Shown here: positions 14,619 through 58,844 of the stretch, piece after piece
How positions within the stretch are numbered: position 1 is the stretch's first letter
How the letters are laid out: each line of letters begins with the position of its first letter
Assembly (NCBI GenBank): GCA_050252075.1
Contig: JBFWLP010000003.1
Location: 2,195-66,194, forward strand
Source of the DNA: Burkholderiaceae bacterium
Lineage (GTDB): Bacteria > Pseudomonadota > Gammaproteobacteria > Burkholderiales > Burkholderiaceae_B
Length of the DNA: 64,000 nucleotides
Reading direction: 5' to 3'
Program-made: the position numbers and the translations under genes
The notes under the pieces: generated by a model
What the model saw: the letters and a program-made list of their open reading frames with translations, nothing else
Told to the model about the DNA's origin: nothing
The model's database searches: none

Positions 14619-16286
14619 ATGAGCTTAACGAATCTAGGGTTATCGGGGTTAACGGCGGCGCAAAATCGCCTGATCACAACCGGTCACAACATCGATAATG
14701 CCGCTACCGAAGGCTACAACCGGCAGGCGGTAGCCGTGGAGACCGCCGGTGCGCGGGCGACCAGCGCCGGGTATTACGGTCGCGGTGTGCAAGTGGTTAC
14801 CGTTCAGCGTGCTTACGACAACTTTATGTACCGGCAACTGGTCAACGCCGAAACCGCCCAGGCATCGTTCACCAGCTATCAAAACGAAATCACCCAGGTG
14901 AACAATTTGTTCGCCGACCGCACAGTGGGCATTTCGCCCGCCATGCAGAAATTCTTCGACGGGGTTCACGCGGTGGCTTCGGCGCCGGCCGACAGCGCGG
15001 CGCGCCAGGAAATGCTGGGCCGGGCCAACAGCCTGGCCGCCCAGATCAACGATACCAATGCGTTTCTGAATAACCAGCGCAACAATATCAATACGCAATT
15101 AACCACCCTGGTCAGCCAGATCAACAGCCAGGCCGAGCGGGTCAACAGCCTGAATCTGCAAATTGCGCAAGCCCGGGCCTCGTCCTCGTCGCACGAGCCG
15201 AACGATCTGCTCGACCAGCGCGATCAGGTGGTACGTGAACTGAGCCAGCTGGTGGGTGTTACGGTCATCGAGCAGGAAGGCAAATACAATTTAACCCTGG
15301 GCGGCGGGCAAACGTTATTGGGCGGCACGTCGGTATTTCCGCTGCAGGCGGTGCCGGCCAGCGGCGATCCCTCGCGCCTGGTGGTGGCGGCAACGGCCAC
15401 GGGTTCCGGGGGTACCCCGGTTGCCAAGATCATCGATGAAACCCGCCTGACCGGCGGGCAACTGGGCGGGCTGCTTCAGTACCGGCGCGAATCGCTTGAC
15501 GCCGTCCAGAACGAGCTGGGCCGCCTGGCGGTGGGCCTTACCCATGCCTTCAACAGCGTTCATGCCACCGGGGCTGATCTGGCCGGCACTGCCGGCGGCG
15601 AATTCTTCCGCATTGGCGACATTACCGCCGTGCCCGGAAAGAACAACAGCGGTACCGGGCCGGCGGTTACGGCCGCCATTACCACCGCCGGCGATCTGTC
15701 GGCACAAGATTACGAAATCAGGCTCACCGACGCCACGGCGCCGGGAACCTACACCATCACCCGTCTGCCCGATGGCCAGGCGCAAACCTATACGGTCGAT
15801 GCCGGCCAGGAAATTGAAATCGACGGCGTCACGTTCGGCAATCTTGACGGCGCGCACACGGCAGGCGACTCCTGGGTAGTGCAGCCAACCCGCCAGGCGG
15901 CCGCCCAGTTTTCGGTATCCATTTCCGATCCGGCAAAAATTGCCGTGGCCAAACCCAATACCGGTACTGCCAACGGCGAAATCGGTCTTCAGCTGGCGCA
16001 GCTGCAAACCGCCAAGATCATGGGCAGCGGCAGTCTCAGCCCGAACGAGGCCTTCTCGCAAATCGTGAACCGTGTTGCCGTGCAAGCGCAGCAAAACGCC
16101 ACATCGGTGAAAGCCCAGGAAGCCCTGGTGGCCCAGAATCTGAAGACGCAGCAGTCGCTGTCGGGGGTTAACCTGAATGAAGAGTTCGTCAATCTTGAAC
16201 GCTTCCAGGAGCAGTTCCGCGCCGCTTCACGGCTTATCGACGTAAGCTCCAAGCTGTTTGAAACACTGATCAATCTGCGTTCTTAA
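14619..16286 (+). CDS. flgK: Hook-filament junction protein FlgK
   Basis: 555 aa. N-terminus LSGLTAAQNRLITTGHNIDNAATEGYNRQ and C-terminus SGVNLNEEFVNLERFQEQFRAASRLI. Confidence 0.95.
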   Translation: MSLTNLGLSGLTAAQNRLITTGHNIDNAATEGYNRQAVAVETAGARATSAGYYGRGVQVVTVQRAYDNFMYRQLVNAETAQASFTSYQNEITQVNNLFADRTVGISPAMQKFFDGVHAVASAPADSAARQEMLGRANSLAAQINDTNAFLNNQRNNINTQLTTLVSQINSQAERVNSLNLQIAQARASSSSHEPNDLLDQRDQVVRELSQLVGVTVIEQEGKYNLTLGGGQTLLGGTSVFPLQAVPASGDPSRLVVAATATGSGGTPVAKIIDETRLTGGQLGGLLQYRRESLDAVQNELGRLAVGLTHAFNSVHATGADLAGTAGGEFFRIGDITAVPGKNNSGTGPAVTAAITTAGDLSAQDYEIRLTDATAPGTYTITRLPDGQAQTYTVDAGQEIEIDGVTFGNLDGAHTAGDSWVVQPTRQAAAQFSVSISDPAKIAVAKPNTGTANGEIGLQLAQLQTAKIMGSGSLSPNEAFSQIVNRVAVQAQQNATSVKAQEALVAQNLKTQQSLSGVNLNEEFVNLERFQEQFRAASRLIDVSSKLFETLINLRS

Positions 16287-16302: not shown

Positions 16303-17838
16303 ATGCGCATCAGTTCCACTGTTTTCTTTGAAACCGGGCTCAACTCCATTACGGCGCAACAGTCCGATCTACTGCACATCTATCAGCAAGTCAGTACGGG
16401 CAAGCGCATGGTTACGCCTTCCGACGACCCGCTTGCCGCCTCGCAGGCTATCAATATCAGCCAGGCCCAGTCGCTGAACCAGCGTTTTTCCGAAAATCGC
16501 GAAGTGGCCAAACGCAACTTGGGGTTGTCGGAAAGCACGCTCGACAACACGGTGCTGTTGCTGCAAGACATCAAGACGCGTCTGGTGGAAGCCTCGAACG
16601 GCACCTTGTCCGATTCCGACCGCTCTACGCTGGCCGGGGTGTTTTCCGACGCCCGCGATTCGCTGCTGGGCCTGGCCAATGCCACCGACGGCAACGGCCA
16701 GTTTCTGTTTTCGGGGGCCAAGGGCAACACGGCTGCTTTCCAGGACATCAACGGAAAAATCGAATACATGGGCGATCAGGGTGCGCGCAGAATTCAAGCC
16801 GATCAAACCCGCCAGATCATTGCCAGCGATGTCGGCTCGCAGATTTTTGCCCGCGCTACCCCCGGCACCACCGACTACGTTACGCGGGCGGGCACCAATA
16901 CCGGCAACGGCTTTGCCAGCAATCCGGCTATTACCGATCCGTCCGGCGCCAATATCGGCAATGTATTCGAGGTAACGTTCACCAGCCCGGACCGCTACAG
17001 CGTTGTGGTGAAGGATCCCCTGGGGGCCACGGTGCAAACGGTCACCAACCAGGTGTACAACGCCGACGTCAGCAAAAGCCTGGCCCTGCCCGGCGGGGTG
17101 CAGATCCAGTTTACGGGCCAGCCGGCCATCAATGACACTTTCTTTGTCGAGCCGGCCCACATGCCCGACATGCTGGCATCGGCCGGGGTGCAAACCGGTA
17201 CCGGTTCCATCAGCTCACCGCTGGTGAACGACTATTCCATCTATAACGCCACGTACAGTTACGACATTGAGTTCACCGCGCTGAATGAATACACCGTGGT
17301 CATGAAAGACAGTGCCAATAACCCGGTCGAAACCCTGACCAACCAAACCTTTGTTCCTGGGCGTGAAAACGTATTGTCGTTGCCCGGGGGCGTTCAGGTG
17401 AAGGTGTCGGGAAATCCGGCGGTCAATGATACATTTTCCGTGGTACCCACTGACGACACCATCAAAACCGATCTGAACATTTTTGATACGCTCGACAGTG
17501 TGATCGAAGCCTTGCGCACCCCGTCCAACGGCAACCCCGCCGCGTCGGCCTACGTGCAAAATACCCTGGCCAGTGCCATGCAGCGCATCGACATCAATTA
17601 CAACAACGTCATTACCGTACGCGCTTCCGTTGGCGCACGCATGAACGAGCTCGACTCGCTCGATGCCAATGGCAGTCAGCGGGCACTGAACTATTCGCAG
17701 GAACTTTCCCGCCTGGAAGACCTGGACTACTACACCGCCACCACGCAATTGCAGCTGCGTACGGCCGCCCTGGAAGCTGCTTCACTGGCCTTCAAGAAAA
17801 TCCAGAACACCAGCCTGTTCAACATGGGTTCCAATTGA
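16303..17838 (+). CDS. flgL: Hook-filament junction protein FlgL (long form with internal duplication)
   Basis: 511 aa with flagellin-like N- and C-terminal helices (SDDPLAASQAINISQ...; RASVGARMNELD). The central region contains two ~90-aa repeats. Confidence 0.9.
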   Translation: MRISSTVFFETGLNSITAQQSDLLHIYQQVSTGKRMVTPSDDPLAASQAINISQAQSLNQRFSENREVAKRNLGLSESTLDNTVLLLQDIKTRLVEASNGTLSDSDRSTLAGVFSDARDSLLGLANATDGNGQFLFSGAKGNTAAFQDINGKIEYMGDQGARRIQADQTRQIIASDVGSQIFARATPGTTDYVTRAGTNTGNGFASNPAITDPSGANIGNVFEVTFTSPDRYSVVVKDPLGATVQTVTNQVYNADVSKSLALPGGVQIQFTGQPAINDTFFVEPAHMPDMLASAGVQTGTGSISSPLVNDYSIYNATYSYDIEFTALNEYTVVMKDSANNPVETLTNQTFVPGRENVLSLPGGVQVKVSGNPAVNDTFSVVPTDDTIKTDLNIFDTLDSVIEALRTPSNGNPAASAYVQNTLASAMQRIDINYNNVITVRASVGARMNELDSLDANGSQRALNYSQELSRLEDLDYYTATTQLQLRTAALEAASLAFKKIQNTSLFNMGSN

Positions 17839-19372: not shown

Positions 19373-20146
19373 CTAGGGATAAAAGCTGCGGGCCAGCGAC
19401 CCCAGCAACAAATGCCAGCCATCGGCCAGAACGAACAGCATCAGTTTGAACGGCAGTGAAATAGTCACCGGCGGCACCATCATCATACCCAGAGCCATCA
19501 GTACGCTGGCCACCACCAGATCGATGATCAGGAAGGGAATGAAAATGGTGAAACCGATCTGAAAGGCCGTTTTCAGCTCACTGGTCACAAAGGCCGGAAC
19601 CAGAACACGCAGCGGCGTGTCGGCGGGCGTTTCCAGCGGGCCTACATTGGCCATGTTGGCAAACAGGATCAGGTCGGCTTCGCGGGTTTGCGTCAGCATA
19701 AAGGTGTGCAAGGGGCCCACGGCTTGCTGCAGTGCCTGTTCAAAATTCAGCGCCCCGGTGCTCAGCGGCAGGTAGGCCTGCTGATAAATCTGGTCAAATA
19801 CCGGTGACATGGCATAGAACGTCAGGAACAGCGCCAGGGCAACCAGCACAGAGTTGGGCGGCGACGCGCCGGTTCCCATGGCCTGCCGCAACAAGCCCAG
19901 CACGATCACAATGCGTGTAAAGCCGGTCATGAGCAGCAGCATGGCCGGCAAAAACGACATCATGGTCAGCATGACCAGCGTTTGCAGGCTCAGCGACCAG
20001 GTTTGACTGCCATCGGGGTTGCTGGACGACGTTATGGCCGGCAGCGTGGCCTGCGCCCAAGCCGCGTCGGGCCGAACCAGCAGCAGCGCCAGCAGCACCC
20101 CGCAAACATACCGGAACACCGGCGAAAAACCACGATCAGCCATCAT
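19373..20146 (-). CDS. fliP: Export apparatus protein FliP
   Basis: 257 aa. Signal-like N-terminus and conserved [16 protein letters not shown] and [19 protein letters not shown] blocks. Confidence 0.95.
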
Positions 20147-20559
20147 CTTCGCTTCAACGACTGCGCCAGCACCCGGGAAAAAGCCCCCATCCGTCCCGAA
20201 TCCGGTGCGCTCAACCCGCCGGCGGAGTCGTTGGGGTCAGAGTAAATTTCGGGGTCAGAGCAGCCCTTGGGGTCAGAGTAAGCGCCGGCAGCCGCTGCGT
20301 CGTGGCTCTGCCCGGCAGGCAGCGTATGCAGCAAGGTGATGGATTGGGCCGTAACGCCCAGCACCAGGCGTGTGTCTTCCACCTGAACCATGGCAACATA
20401 ATTGCGCCCGCCCAGGCTTTGAGCCCCCAGAACTTTCATGCTGCGCGCCTGCCCCTTGCGATGCCAGCCGGCCCGGCGGGTAAGCCATGCCGCGCCAAGA
20501 ATGAGCAGCACGACAACGACCAGGCTGATGATCACCCGCAGGATATCGGCTTCTTGCAT
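20143..20559 (-). CDS. fliO: Export apparatus protein FliO
   Basis: 138 aa with a single N-terminal TM segment. Sits between fliN and fliP, and its stop overlaps the fliP start. Contains the in-frame 18-bp repeat block. Confidence 0.8.
20233..20286. repeat. 3 x 18-bp direct tandem repeat (GGGGTCAGAGYA + 6 nt) inside fliO
   Basis: Units at 20233-20250, 20251-20268 and 20269-20286. On the coding strand they read in frame as [18 protein letters not shown]. Confidence 0.9.
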
Positions 20560-55314: not shown

Positions 55315-55687
55315 TGTCGCCGCCATCGGTATCGGCGCTGCGCTGGGGGCCGTGTTCCGCTGGTTGCTGGGGTTGTGGCTGAATCAACCCTATTTGTCGT
55401 TGCCCTGGGGAACACTGGCCGCCAATTTTATCGGGGCCTACCTTATTGGCCTGGCCCTGGGGGCGTTGTCACTGTTTCCCGAGGTTCCAGTGTGGCTGCG
55501 CCTGTTTTTCGTTACCGGCTTTCTGGGCGGCCTGACCACCTTTTCCACTTTTTCGGGCGAATCCTTCGGTATGCTGGAGCGTGGCGAGTACCTGACCGCG
55601 CTGGGGTATATGGGCGGCAGCGTGGCCGGCTGTATCGCCTTGACCGCCGTGGGGTTTGTGACCGTTCACGCCCTGATCAAGCCCTGA
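55298..55687 (+). CDS. crcB: Fluoride channel CrcB/FluC
   Basis: About 129 aa with four TM segments. GFLGGLTTFSTFS motif. Start (ATG 55298) lies inside the thrC 3' end. Confidence 0.85.
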   Translation: MLQLANVAAIGIGAALGAVFRWLLGLWLNQPYLSLPWGTLAANFIGAYLIGLALGALSLFPEVPVWLRLFFVTGFLGGLTTFSTFSGESFGMLERGEYLTALGYMGGSVAGCIALTAVGFVTVHALIKP

Positions 55688-57080
55688 AGGCCTGGGGGGC
55701 GGCCGCCGTGGCGCCGTCCAGCTGGTCGGCCAGGCAGCGCGCGGCGCGCCGGCCGCTGCGTACCGCGCCTTCCAGCACCGCCGGGTAGCCTGTGGCCGTC
55801 CAGTCGCCCGCCACGACCACATTCGGCCATGCCGTAACATTGTCCGGGCGATCCAGCCCCGGCAACGCGGCGAATGTGGCTCGCTTCTCGACAATCAGGC
55901 TGTATCCGGTCACCGGCGGTAAATCCCCCCCTTGCTCCCGCACCTGGCCCGCCACCGCACTTGCCAGCCAGTCACCCTCCGCCTGCACCACCCCCACCGC
56001 ATCACTCACCACCACATGAACTTTGGGGTCAGAGTAAAAGTCGGGGTCAGAGTAAAACCCGTGCGGATTGAACAGCCATTGCCCTACCTGGCCTTCATGC
56101 GGGTTGTCGTGCAGCAGGTACATGGGGGTCTGTGTGACCCAGGGACGTTCCAGACGCAGTGTAAGGGTGGCAATGGGTCGATAGGTGAAGGCCGCCAGCG
56201 AGGACAGCAGTTGCCCGCTGCCGGGCATGGCCGGCAACTGCGCCGCCAATTGGCGCGCCGGTGCAGCTTGCGTGGCGATCACCAGGGCGTTGAAATGCTC
56301 GCCATTCACATACAGACTACGCGCATTTTCCCATTGCAGACGGCGCACGGGAGTACGCCATCGAACCATCGCGGCATGTTGCGTCTGCAACTGCCGCACG
56401 GCGGTGTCGCACCACAAGGCCGTAAGGTCAACTCGGGGAATCAGTACGTCAGTAGCTTGTCGGGTCGCGCCCCCGAGGCTGTCTTTCAGTACCCGCCAAA
56501 GCAGCTGCGCACAGGCCTCATGGGCGGGCGTGTTCAGCGCCGCCACGCACAGGGGTTCCCAGAAGTGGCGCAGCAGGGCGGCCGACGGTCTTGAAGGTGC
56601 CAGCCATTTCGCGACAGTGACGGATGGCGGGGCTGTTTTCAGGGCCCGATGCAGGAAGAGCGCGAATCGCGCACGGTCGGCCGTACTGACGCCGCGCACG
56701 GTGAGCAGGGCCGCGATCCGGTTCCAGGGCGCGGGCCAGGCCGGTGTGCCAAGCCGGAAGGTTCCATCCAGGCTTTCCAGTCGCAGGGGTTCGCGATAAA
56801 AGCGTTGTTCGGCGTCCAGCCCCAGTTCCCGCATGAGCGCCAGTGTTTCGGTATACGCACCCAGCAACAGGTGCTGGCCGTTGTCGATGATCCACGATTC
56901 GCCCGGCGTGGCGCCGTGTACCGGCGCCTTGATCCTGCGCGCCCGGCCGCCAACGGTGTCGGACGCCTCGAAGACGGTCACCTGGTACCCCTGGCGCGCC
57001 AGGGAGAGCGCGCAACTAAGGCCAGCCCACCCGGCGCCTGCAATGGCCACATGATGGCCGGCGCCTGCACCCAGACTCAC
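55677..57080 (-). CDS. hpnE: Hydroxysqualene dehydroxylase HpnE (FAD-dependent amine-oxidase fold)
   Basis: GTG start at 57080 overlaps the hpnD stop (GTGA). FAD motif VAIAGAGWAGLSCALSLARQGYQVTVFEASDTVGGR. Follows hpnC and hpnD. Contains the 2 x 18-bp repeat. Confidence 0.8.
   Translation of the reverse strand: MSLGAGAGHHVAIAGAGWAGLSCALSLARQGYQVTVFEASDTVGGRARRIKAPVHGATPGESWIIDNGQHLLLGAYTETLALMRELGLDAEQRFYREPLRLESLDGTFRLGTPAWPAPWNRIAALLTVRGVSTADRARFALFLHRALKTAPPSVTVAKWLAPSRPSAALLRHFWEPLCVAALNTPAHEACAQLLWRVLKDSLGGATRQATDVLIPRVDLTALWCDTAVRQLQTQHAAMVRWRTPVRRLQWENARSLYVNGEHFNALVIATQAAPARQLAAQLPAMPGSGQLLSSLAAFTYRPIATLTLRLERPWVTQTPMYLLHDNPHEGQVGQWLFNPHGFYSDPDFYSDPKVHVVVSDAVGVVQAEGDWLASAVAGQVREQGGDLPPVTGYSLIVEKRATFAALPGLDRPDNVTAWPNVVVAGDWTATGYPAVLEGAVRSGRRAARCLADQLDGATAAAPQAFRA
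56025..56060. repeat. 2 x 18-bp direct tandem repeat (GGGGTCAGAGTAAAA + 3 nt) inside hpnE
   Basis: Units at 56025-56042 and 56043-56060. They read in frame on the coding strand as FYSDPD FYSDPK. The core is the same as in the fliO repeat. Confidence 0.9.
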
Positions 57081-57946
57081 GGCCGGCCGAGACGCTTTAC
57101 CAGACCGTGCCCACCGCTCACCCACGTTTTCCAGGCAAGCCAGAGCTTGCGGATGGGGGTCAGGGAAATGCGCTGGTCCAGAACGCGCCATTGCTCGTCG
57201 TCGATTTCGTGCAGCAGGGTGTTGTAGATGGCGGCCATGAGCAGCCCGGGGCGCTGGCTGCGGATGTCCTGGGCGGGCAGCGCTTGCATGGCCTCGCGGT
57301 ATAGCGCATGCGTACGTTCCGACTGCGCTTTCATGAGCTCGGTGAAACCGGGTGTGTAGATGCCATTCAGAATATCCGCTTCGCGTACACCGAAGGCCTT
57401 CAGATCGGACAAGGGCAGGTAAATGCGGCCCCGCCGGGCATCGTCGCCGACGTCGCGAATGATGTTGGTCATTTGAAACGCCAGCCCCAGTTTCTGCGCG
57501 TAATCGAGGGTTTCGGGCCGGGTGTAGCCGAAAATGGCCGCTGAAAGCTCGCCCACCACACCCGCCGCATGCCAGCAGTAGCGGCGCAATGCCGCCCAGT
57601 CGTCGTAGCGGTGGCGGTCCAGATCCATTTCCATGCCTTCGATGATGGCATAAAGGTGATCCTGATTCAGGCCGAACGGCGCGATATGAGGGGCCAGCGC
57701 CTGCATTACAGGGTGCTCGGCCGAACCGTGTTCGTACAGCATTTCCACCTGCTTGCGCCACCACACCAGTTTCATGCGGGCCACCGAGGTTTCATGGACT
57801 TCGTCGACGATGTCGTCGACCTCGCGGCAAAACGCATAGAGCGCGGTAATGGCGCGTCGTCTGTCGGGAGGAAGAAACAGAAACGCATAGTAAAAGCTGG
57901 AGCCACTTTGCGCTGCTTTGTTTTGGCAGTACTCGTCGGGGGTCAT
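57077..57946 (-). CDS. hpnD: Presqualene diphosphate synthase HpnD
   Basis: Start taken at the ATG at 57946 (MTPDEYCQNKAAQSGSSFYYAFLFLP). Squalene/phytoene synthase motifs (YAFCREVDDIVD, IIRDVGDDARRGRIYLP). Confidence 0.85.
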   Translation of the reverse strand: MTPDEYCQNKAAQSGSSFYYAFLFLPPDRRRAITALYAFCREVDDIVDEVHETSVARMKLVWWRKQVEMLYEHGSAEHPVMQALAPHIAPFGLNQDHLYAIIEGMEMDLDRHRYDDWAALRRYCWHAAGVVGELSAAIFGYTRPETLDYAQKLGLAFQMTNIIRDVGDDARRGRIYLPLSDLKAFGVREADILNGIYTPGFTELMKAQSERTHALYREAMQALPAQDIRSQRPGLLMAAIYNTLLHEIDDEQWRVLDQRISLTPIRKLWLAWKTWVSGGHGLVKRLGRP

Positions 57947-57962
57947 GAAAACGTTGCTGGCC

Positions 57963-58844
57963 TTAGAGAGTTGGAGTGCGGTGTTCGAGTGAGTGAGTAT
58001 ATCGGTCAAAGCGCAGGGTTCGCCACGCCAGCCGGGCCCAGTCGGCCTTGCCCAGCACGGGGCGGTTCCCGAAAACGTCGTAGTTTAATTCGTCCAGCCG
58101 TTCGAGTATGCGTAATCCGCCCAGCACCACCAGGCGCAGCTCGATACCAATACGCCCGCCCAGCCGGCAAGCCAGGGGCGCACCATCGAGCAGCAGGCGG
58201 CGCGCGCCTGCAACCTGTTCACGCATGAGGGGTGCCCAACCGGGCGCGGGCCGCGAACCTTGCACGGCATGGCCGATGTCTTGTTCGTCGATGCCAAAGG
58301 CCAGCATGCGGGCCTGGGGAATGTAAATTCGCTGTTTTTGCCAGTCGATCGCCACATCTTGCCAGAAGTTGGCCAGTTGCAGACCGGTGCAAATGGCGTC
58401 GCTGTCTCGCAGGTTCTGCAGGCCGGCCGCACCGTACAGGTGCAGCATCAGGCGTCCCACCGGGTTGGCCGACCGCCGGCAGTAGTCGAGCAAGGCTTCG
58501 TTATCGGCGTAGCGCGTTGTGGTGACGTCTTGTTCGAAGGCCGAGAGCAGGTCGGTGAAGGGTTTGACGGGCAACTGGTAGCGCCGGATCACTTGTTCCA
58601 GGCGATAAAACAAGGCCGCACGCGGATGATCAGCCGCCAGGGGCTGCTCGCCACCCTGCATGGCATGCAGGGCCTGCCGGTAGTCGGCCAGCTGGGCCAG
58701 GCGTTCGGCCGGTGCGGCATCGCCTTCGTCGGCAATGTCGTCGGCTGTGCGTGCAAACTGGTAAATAGCCTGCACGGCCGGGCGCAAACGACGCGGCAGC
58801 AGCAGCGATGCAACAGGAAAGTTTTCGTAGTGATCAACGGCCAT
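57963..58844 (-). CDS. hpnC: Hydroxysqualene synthase HpnC
   Basis: 293 aa. HYENFPVASLLLPRRLRPAV..YQFARTADDIADEG. Confidence 0.85.
   Translation of the reverse strand: MAVDHYENFPVASLLLPRRLRPAVQAIYQFARTADDIADEGDAAPAERLAQLADYRQALHAMQGGEQPLAADHPRAALFYRLEQVIRRYQLPVKPFTDLLSAFEQDVTTTRYADNEALLDYCRRSANPVGRLMLHLYGAAGLQNLRDSDAICTGLQLANFWQDVAIDWQKQRIYIPQARMLAFGIDEQDIGHAVQGSRPAPGWAPLMREQVAGARRLLLDGAPLACRLGGRIGIELRLVVLGGLRILERLDELNYDVFGNRPVLGKADWARLAWRTLRFDRYTHSLEHRTPTL

Follow-up and report, generated by a model that had tools for sequence, protein, structure and literature searches.

The closest described relatives of the repeats analysed here are the REP/REPIN elements with their RAYT transposases (Nunvar 2010; Bertels & Rainey 2011, PMC3116915; Bertels 2017, PMC5581495) and the TIRYT or 'TIRtron' elements (Di Nocera, De Gregorio & Rocco 2013, BMC Genomics 14:522; PMC3733652). 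Flanking of a transposase gene by the most frequent 16-mer of the genome is the criterion of Bertels et al. for REP-associated transposases (PMC5581495). According to the portions of PMC3733652 drawn on here, the inverted repeats that flank TIRYT-type Y1 transposase genes share the sequence GGGGWSAS, and some of them also form moderately abundant dispersed families. The same portions describe intragenic REPs, which often reside in replication and repair genes, and REP ends that serve as stop codons. The classic case of in-frame insertion is provided by the RPEs of Rickettsia (PMC10969869). As described in the parts of the literature cited here (Ogata et al. 2000, reviewed in PMC10969869 and PMC3733652), RPEs are ~100-150 bp long, encode a conserved peptide of 30-50 aa, carry a CGTC tag and have no known transposase. 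An intragenic element that resembles a REP or an RPE is already a known kind, and the results reported below leave the current understanding of REP-like elements unchanged.

The window analysed here comprises 64 kb of DNA (contig C3, positions 2195-66194) from a metagenome-assembled genome (MAG) of 3.36 Mb in 190 contigs with a GC content of 59.7%. Relatives of its FliO protein are named Pusillimonas, Castellaniella, Eoetvoesiella and Paralcaligenes, which places the organism among Alcaligenaceae-type bacteria. A sequence-only reading of the window had noted a common 18-bp repeat in fliO (three units) and hpnE (two units), both on the minus strand and both read in an xYSDPx frame, and the sequence and its translation match this description exactly. 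The fliO array occupies positions 20233-20286 on the minus strand and consists of three direct 18-nt units at 20233-20250, 20251-20268 and 20269-20286 (GGGGTCAGAGTAAATTTC / GGGGTCAGAGCAGCCCTT / GGGGTCAGAGTAAGCGCC). Its core, GGGGTCAGAG, is found on the plus strand, and translation of the minus strand yields three xYSDPx hexapeptides. The host gene (20143..20559, minus strand, 138 aa; Pfam PF04347, FliO, E=2.4e-18) carries the array in a linker between the conserved core of the protein (…LLHTLP) and a conserved C-terminal F..L..R segment.

The second array, at 56025-56060 on the minus strand, is composed of two direct 18-nt units at 56025-56042 and 56043-56060 (GGGGTCAGAGTAAAAGTC / GGGGTCAGAGTAAAACCC), each of which includes the full 14-mer GGGGTCAGAGTAAA, and is read on the minus strand as FYSDPDFYSDPK (FYSDPD-FYSDPK). 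It is located in an hpnE-type FAD amine oxidase gene (55677..57080, minus strand; PF01593, Amino_oxidase, E=3.7e-34) that adjoins an hpnD-like ORF at 57077-58009. Public annotation calls a 467-aa form of HpnE, and we inferred the start from the cluster member P0060. Allowing at most one mismatch, the 12-mer GGGGTCAGAGYA occurs five times in the window compared with 0.54 expected occurrences, and none of 100 shuffles reached five.

The repeat is not confined to fliO and hpnE. The whole-genome search that the sequence-only reading had proposed returned many further copies: the 10-nt core GGGGTCAGAG is present 154 times, compared with a mean of ~6 for letter-shuffled 10-mers and no occurrence of the reversed control. 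These copies group into 58 clusters, namely 39 multi-unit arrays outside long ORFs (mostly hairpin-forming), five arrays within genes and 14 single cores in long ORFs. The repeat unit can be written as GGGGTCAGAG(T/C)AAAWWW. A typical intergenic cluster consists of one to three tandem 17-nt units (GGGGTCAGAG-YAAAWWW), a short A/T loop and then an equal number of units in inverted orientation, as exemplified by GGGGTCAGAGTAAATTTTTACTCTGACCCC. Hairpin energies amount to -30 to -63 kcal/mol for the intergenic clusters and -7 to -16 kcal/mol for the coding arrays, which lack an inverted partner and show no strong folding. A terminal GTAG or CGTC tag was not found on the repeat unit. With 154 copies that are clustered in hairpins on a minority of contigs, the family also differs from DNA uptake sequences, which comprise thousands of copies of a 9- to 12-mer in genes and intergenic regions. 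A text search of the literature with the core sequence retrieved only primers and unrelated matches, none of them together with the word 'extragenic'.

Intergenic clusters often abut the 3' ends of genes and sometimes provide the stop codon. At least five genes, encoding 293-774 aa, end in '…GSE-TAA' with the stop taken from the outermost unit of a repeat cluster. Such donated stops, all outside the window, are found at C28:9984-10049, C31:17122, C32:6222 and C24:18296. The cluster at C28:9984-10049 is a single hairpin cluster whose opposite ends give stops to two convergent genes.

The clusters are unevenly distributed. About 13 of the 190 contigs (363 kb), among them C24, C28, C31, C32, C47, C58, C66 and C80, hold nearly all intergenic clusters at a density of one per 2-6 kb, and the largest contigs (C1, C2, C4-C10) hold none. 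The contigs that carry the fliO, hpnE, dnaG and phnI arrays contain no intergenic copies, and this separation is not predicted by simple random insertion followed by selection. The repeat-rich contigs could be a chromid, an island or regions of the flexible genome. We considered mis-binning as the source of the uneven spread, and it was not supported by GC content, tetranucleotide PCA or gene content. In two cases, C58:21752-21815 and C66:77-140, and C28:32893-32988 and C47:65-126, pairs of clusters have near-identical but non-identical flanks, with some members at contig ends. Such pairs suggest either that segments were duplicated or that strain heterogeneity breaks the assembly at the repeats.

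The family is associated with a Y1 (HUH) transposase gene of the RAYT/TIRYT type at C31:16451-17071. Its 206-aa product is the only match in the genome above the cut-off of PF01797 (Y1_Tnp) and contains both the HUH motif (NHVHLLV) and the tyrosine motif YIELNPV. Repeat clusters are positioned on both sides of the gene, at 16213-16259 (~190 nt upstream) and at 17076-17122 (5 nt downstream). The top 16-mer of the genome, TTGGGGTCAGAGTAAA, has 57 copies compared with a mean of 2.2 for random windows, and it is present in both flanks of the Y1 gene in inverted orientation. A second and distant Y1-like gene at C24:6472-6927, which surfaced only in a protein search, encodes a protein with 31% identity to the repeat-flanked one. 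Most genomes of the family, the same-genus one among them, have conserved this paralogue, which may be vertically inherited and domesticated.

By comparison with the known systems, the flanking of a single RAYT-type gene by the top 16-mer is shared with REP/REPIN-RAYT elements, as are short extragenic hairpin-forming repeats that are clustered, form higher-order tandems and lie next to gene 3' ends. Unlike in these systems, there is no GTAG tag here, and the Y1 protein scores 76 bits against the NCBIfam model 'REP-associated tyrosine transposase' (NF047646), just under its cut-off of 80. It is only remotely similar to the solved structures of ISDra2 TnpA and E. coli TnpA-REP (4ER8; E=5e-3), and at 206 aa it exceeds the 165 aa of the E. 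coli RAYT. The distribution of the present family also looks horizontal or patchy, whereas RAYT groups 2 and 3 were reported to be vertically inherited.

The similarity to TIRtrons, as these are described in the parts of PMC3733652 referred to here, comprises a Y1 gene longer than classical RAYTs, inverted GGGGWSAS flanks, a flanking sequence that is also a moderately abundant dispersed family in dimers and clusters, and a patchy distribution among species. The sequence GGGGTCAG within the core fits the GGGGWSAS consensus given in that source. Our comparison with TIRYTs covers these flanks, the dispersed family and the length of 206 aa. Two features differ from TIRtrons as covered in the same parts of that paper. 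In the present family, each hairpin arm is a tandem stack of 17-nt half-palindromes, and there are in-frame direct arrays of period 18 within genes, whereas intragenic copies are given there for GTAG and CGTC REPs.

The 14-mer GGGGTCAGAGYAAA has 109 copies here, none in the same-genus genome and at most one in each of 39 other relatives, and the palindromic form was not detected in 300 genomes from 51 genera of the same family. The same-genus genome has no orthologue of the C31 Y1 transposase and carries only the paralogue with 31% identity. The palindrome GGGGTCAGAG-N10-CTCTGACCCC does occur in distant taxa, with many copies on a Pseudomonadales chromosome and further occurrences in Gemmatimonadaceae, Woeseiaceae, Lysobacterales and Alteromonas. 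A full-length Y1 homologue with 43-55% identity is encoded in 12 of 14 of these distant palindrome-bearing genomes. At six distant loci the core is located upstream (+) and downstream (-) of the gene for the Y1 homologue, that is, as inverted flanks. Either GGGGTCAG or GGGGACAG lies beside Y1 homologues at these six loci and in four Burkholderiales genomes. Y1 homologues of other Burkholderiales families are flanked by the related cores GGGGACAGAC, GGGGTCAGAC, GGGGTCAGACCCC and GGGGTCTGTCCC, in agreement with the GGGGWSAS motif of TIRYT flanks (PMC3733652). The core GGGGTCAGAG is conserved across very divergent Y1 enzymes, and its pairing across phyla with one Y1 transposase clade offers a testable case of co-inheritance of enzyme and repeat. 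In Gemmatimonadaceae and other MAGs (L036, L053, L062, L094, L108 and others), we also observed the GGGGTCAGAG core in tandem-plus-inverted arrays with a period of 16-17 nt. These arrays have different inner stems (for example, GGGGTCAGAGGCTGATCAGCCTCTGACCCC) and adjoin the Y1 homologues with 43-55% identity.

Five of the 58 clusters are direct-only arrays in well-supported genes. In addition to fliO (xYSDPx three times, in the linker) and hpnE (in a loop), both on C3, these are dnaG, phnI and an autotransporter gene. The dnaG array on C40 encodes FYSDPNGYSDPD in a Pro-rich linker that leads from the Toprim/DnaB_bind region to the C-terminal DnaB-binding domain. The phnI array on C55 encodes LVSEQKSGSEQKLGSEQ in the opposite orientation, in a tail beyond the Pfam domain, and the autotransporter on C24 carries FTLTPNFALTP in its beta-domain region. 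Coding arrays use three different frames and both orientations, giving YSDP in three of the five, GSEQ in PhnI and TLTP in the autotransporter, which indicates that the DNA is shared and not the peptide. The proposal of a dispersed repeat that is common to fliO and hpnE at the level of DNA, and not as a protein motif, is borne out.

The period of the repeat differs between genes and intergenic regions. Unit spacing is 18 nt in seven of seven cases inside genes but in only six of 61 outside, where 50 of the 61 are 17 nt (Fisher p=1.8e-6). A stop is present in one frame per strand, namely TGA in CTCTGACCCC and, on the other strand, TAA in GGGGTCAGAGTAA. An array with a 17-nt period steps through all three frames and necessarily meets TGA or TAA. 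To persist in a gene, an array must have a period divisible by three and be read in an open frame. Rare 18-nt variants of intergenic arrays are the likely raw material for the coding arrays. The family thereby provides a clean example of selection on repeat spacing, with 17 nt outside genes, 18 nt inside and the reading frame as the filter for survivors.

Like intragenic REPs and RPEs, as far as these are treated in the excerpts cited above, the present units are palindromic elements found in frame in unrelated functional genes, including replication genes. The same excerpts suggest that flexible linkers or loops tolerate intragenic REPs and RPEs, and they describe REP ends that can supply stops. 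By contrast to RPEs, we find direct arrays of 36-54 nt that are made of 6-aa units from one hairpin arm, no CGTC, an Alcaligenaceae-type host and a strain-level change in copy number in one array.

Four coding arrays were aligned with orthologues. Each of them is lineage-specific and located in a variable segment (linker, loop or tail), and the repeat is missing from the orthologues; this agrees with the earlier suggestion that the copies occupy tolerant segments. In FliO, the array block and its surroundings amount to ~26 extra residues that are missing from six orthologues in the alignment, including the same-genus protein (123 aa). The HpnE array is in a length-variable loop after a conserved QWLFN, and the same-genus genome has 6 aa fewer in this loop. 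None of the aligned HpnE orthologues contains the repeat; in other genera the loop is similar in length and contains '…DP…' ('…QDP…'). An AlphaFold model of HpnE, which was built from a four-sequence alignment with a mean pLDDT of 62 and is too poor to serve as evidence, places the array between strands at ~324-327 and 343-348. The DnaG array is in a hypervariable linker and is missing from four relatives, which show 'DPD/EPP/QPD' at the aligned position. In PhnI, the tail after a conserved LRR is 32 aa long here and 13-16 aa in orthologues, and the difference corresponds to three 6-aa units.

Unit counts in near relatives indicate that the arrays are inherited as parts of their genes, with occasional gain or loss of one unit. 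All six near-identical FliO sequences, which belong to two 90% clusters and reach down to 95% identity, have three units; in the array of the relative at 95% identity, only the spacers have changed and the three cores are preserved. HpnE has two units in the 98%-identical P0059, the one relative read, and the lengths of three cluster members (466-467 aa) are compatible with this. PhnI has three units (395 aa) in two sequences and two units (389 aa) in three, and at the DNA level phnI of near-identical strains differs by a clean 18-nt indel with identical flanks. The length polymorphism anticipated by the sequence-only reading is hence real for phnI, but neither the six fliO sequences nor the one hpnE relative read showed any.

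The same reading had characterized the repeat as a dispersed, frame-preserving minisatellite of coding genes, and this label does not fit a family that is mainly an intergenic hairpin-forming palindrome with a native 17-nt period, is tied to a Y1 gene and forms in-frame arrays in just five of 58 clusters. A self-contained coding minisatellite, with the 18-nt unit originating and multiplying in genes through replication slippage and the intergenic copies being secondary, would account for the gain and loss of whole units in phnI and for the finding that all coding arrays are direct and in frame. We consider it very unlikely, given that the dominant unit is non-coding, that units are read in three frames and both orientations, and that a flanked Y1 transposase accompanies the family both in this genome and in distant phyla; moreover, slippage cannot carry a unit between unlinked genes. 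It is scarcely conceivable that YSDP is a functional peptide motif (for binding or modification, for instance) on which selection acted independently in FliO, HpnE and DnaG. The three of five coding arrays in one frame and the retention of arrays in relatives at 95-98% identity might be cited for it, yet only four or five of the six frames are open, so that three of five in one frame is not significant. What the arrays have in common is nucleotide sequence, including synonymous and spacer positions and the exact 14-mer. PhnI reads this DNA as GSEQ and the autotransporter reads it as TLTP, and no orthologue contains the motif. The odd common 'motif' of these unrelated proteins is better explained as hitch-hiking mobile DNA than as function, an explanation that guards against false domain or motif calls.

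We also give almost no credence to a binning or assembly artefact, by which repeat-rich contigs would stem from another organism and the in-gene arrays would be chimeric. The genome is a fragmented MAG, 13 of its 190 contigs hold nearly all intergenic clusters and some contig ends fall within clusters, all of which could raise this suspicion. However, the repeat-rich contigs lie inside the composition range of the bin and encode typical Alcaligenaceae accessory genes, for example, for Bug/TctC-type binding proteins, and contamination is 0.54%. The same in-gene arrays recur in independent assemblies of other samples (ENA, JGI and Logan), and the fliO junction sequence GCCGGCGGAGYCGTTGGGGTCAGAG was found in a JGI contig; this recurrence excludes the assembly artefact for which the sequence-only reading had allowed. 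It is unlikely, although several observations are in line with it, that the arrays originated not through insertion by the transposase but through short-patch recombination or gene conversion, with intergenic arrays as donors and core-like native sequence as recipient. The HpnE loop exceeds that of the same genus by only 6 aa and has '…QDP…' counterparts in other genera, relatives of DnaG have 'DPD/EPP/QPD' at the aligned position, and several single cores, some reaching the 14-mer, lie in conserved native segments without a change in length (for example, YEIGVRVNIDVLDA). On the other hand, alignments cannot be relied on in hypervariable regions, FliO and PhnI have clearly gained ~18-26 aa through their arrays, and direct evidence of conversion tracts is absent.

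The fliO and hpnE units are thus very probably in-frame members of a species-specific, genome-wide palindromic family of the REP-like or 'TIRtron' kind that belongs to the RAYT/TIRYT-type Y1 gene on C31. The Y1 enzyme presumably moved the units. We observed no transposition event and could read no target-site signature. According to this explanation, units would occasionally land in genes, and the survivors would be those copies that keep the frame open. Survival would need a direct-only arrangement, a spacer one base longer (period 18) and a stop-free frame (YSDP, TLTP, GSEQ etc.), and the array would have to occupy a part of the protein where additional hydrophilic residues are tolerated, namely a linker, loop or tail. 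Once in a gene, an array would be passed on within the protein, with whole units gained or lost by slippage or unequal recombination. A point against this explanation is that in the classical REPIN model the mobile unit is an inverted doublet, whereas coding arrays contain direct units only. Direct-only arrays might arise when an inserted element loses one arm and undergoes slippage, or else through short-patch conversion. The HpnE array, only one unit longer than the same-genus loop and with '…DP…' loops elsewhere, may reflect a partial replacement or conversion of native sequence.

Elements of this type can add small variable peptide segments, as in the two or three units of PhnI and the FliO linker variants, and can donate stops. 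More speculatively, and with considerable reservation on our part, GGGGWSAS-type half-palindromes might be a recurrent source of in-frame, copy-number-variable 6-aa cassettes; the FliO linker might have been colonised independently twice in Alcaligenaceae (direct YSDP and palindromic GVRARALTP), and the repeat-transposase pair might be horizontally mobile across phyla, unlike RAYT groups 2 and 3.

A second FliO lineage (~50% identity) was encountered on metagenome contigs from Alcaligenaceae at L149:2040-2260 and L151:355-520, with variants of 126-178 aa. In this lineage the same linker is extended by in-frame palindromes of 26-27 nt, for example, GGTGTCAGAGCCAGGGCTCTGACACC (GVRARALTP), whose core differs from that of the present genome by one mismatch. 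This suggests that the linker was colonised independently in the second lineage.

The 14 single cores in long ORFs were evaluated as additional insertions and set aside; they lie mostly in conserved native segments (MnmE, NorB, TolC-type and PuuE-type proteins) of unchanged length. At C21:17098, C113:603, C24:25597 and C67:14716, a single full 14-mer, GGGGTCAGAGYAAA, is present in conserved-looking segments, compared with ~0.05 expected by chance. Single units in native segments may derive from conversion by the repeat family, a hint that may be owed to chance. The TolC-type motif YEIGVRVNIDVLDA is an example of a single unit with no obvious change in length.
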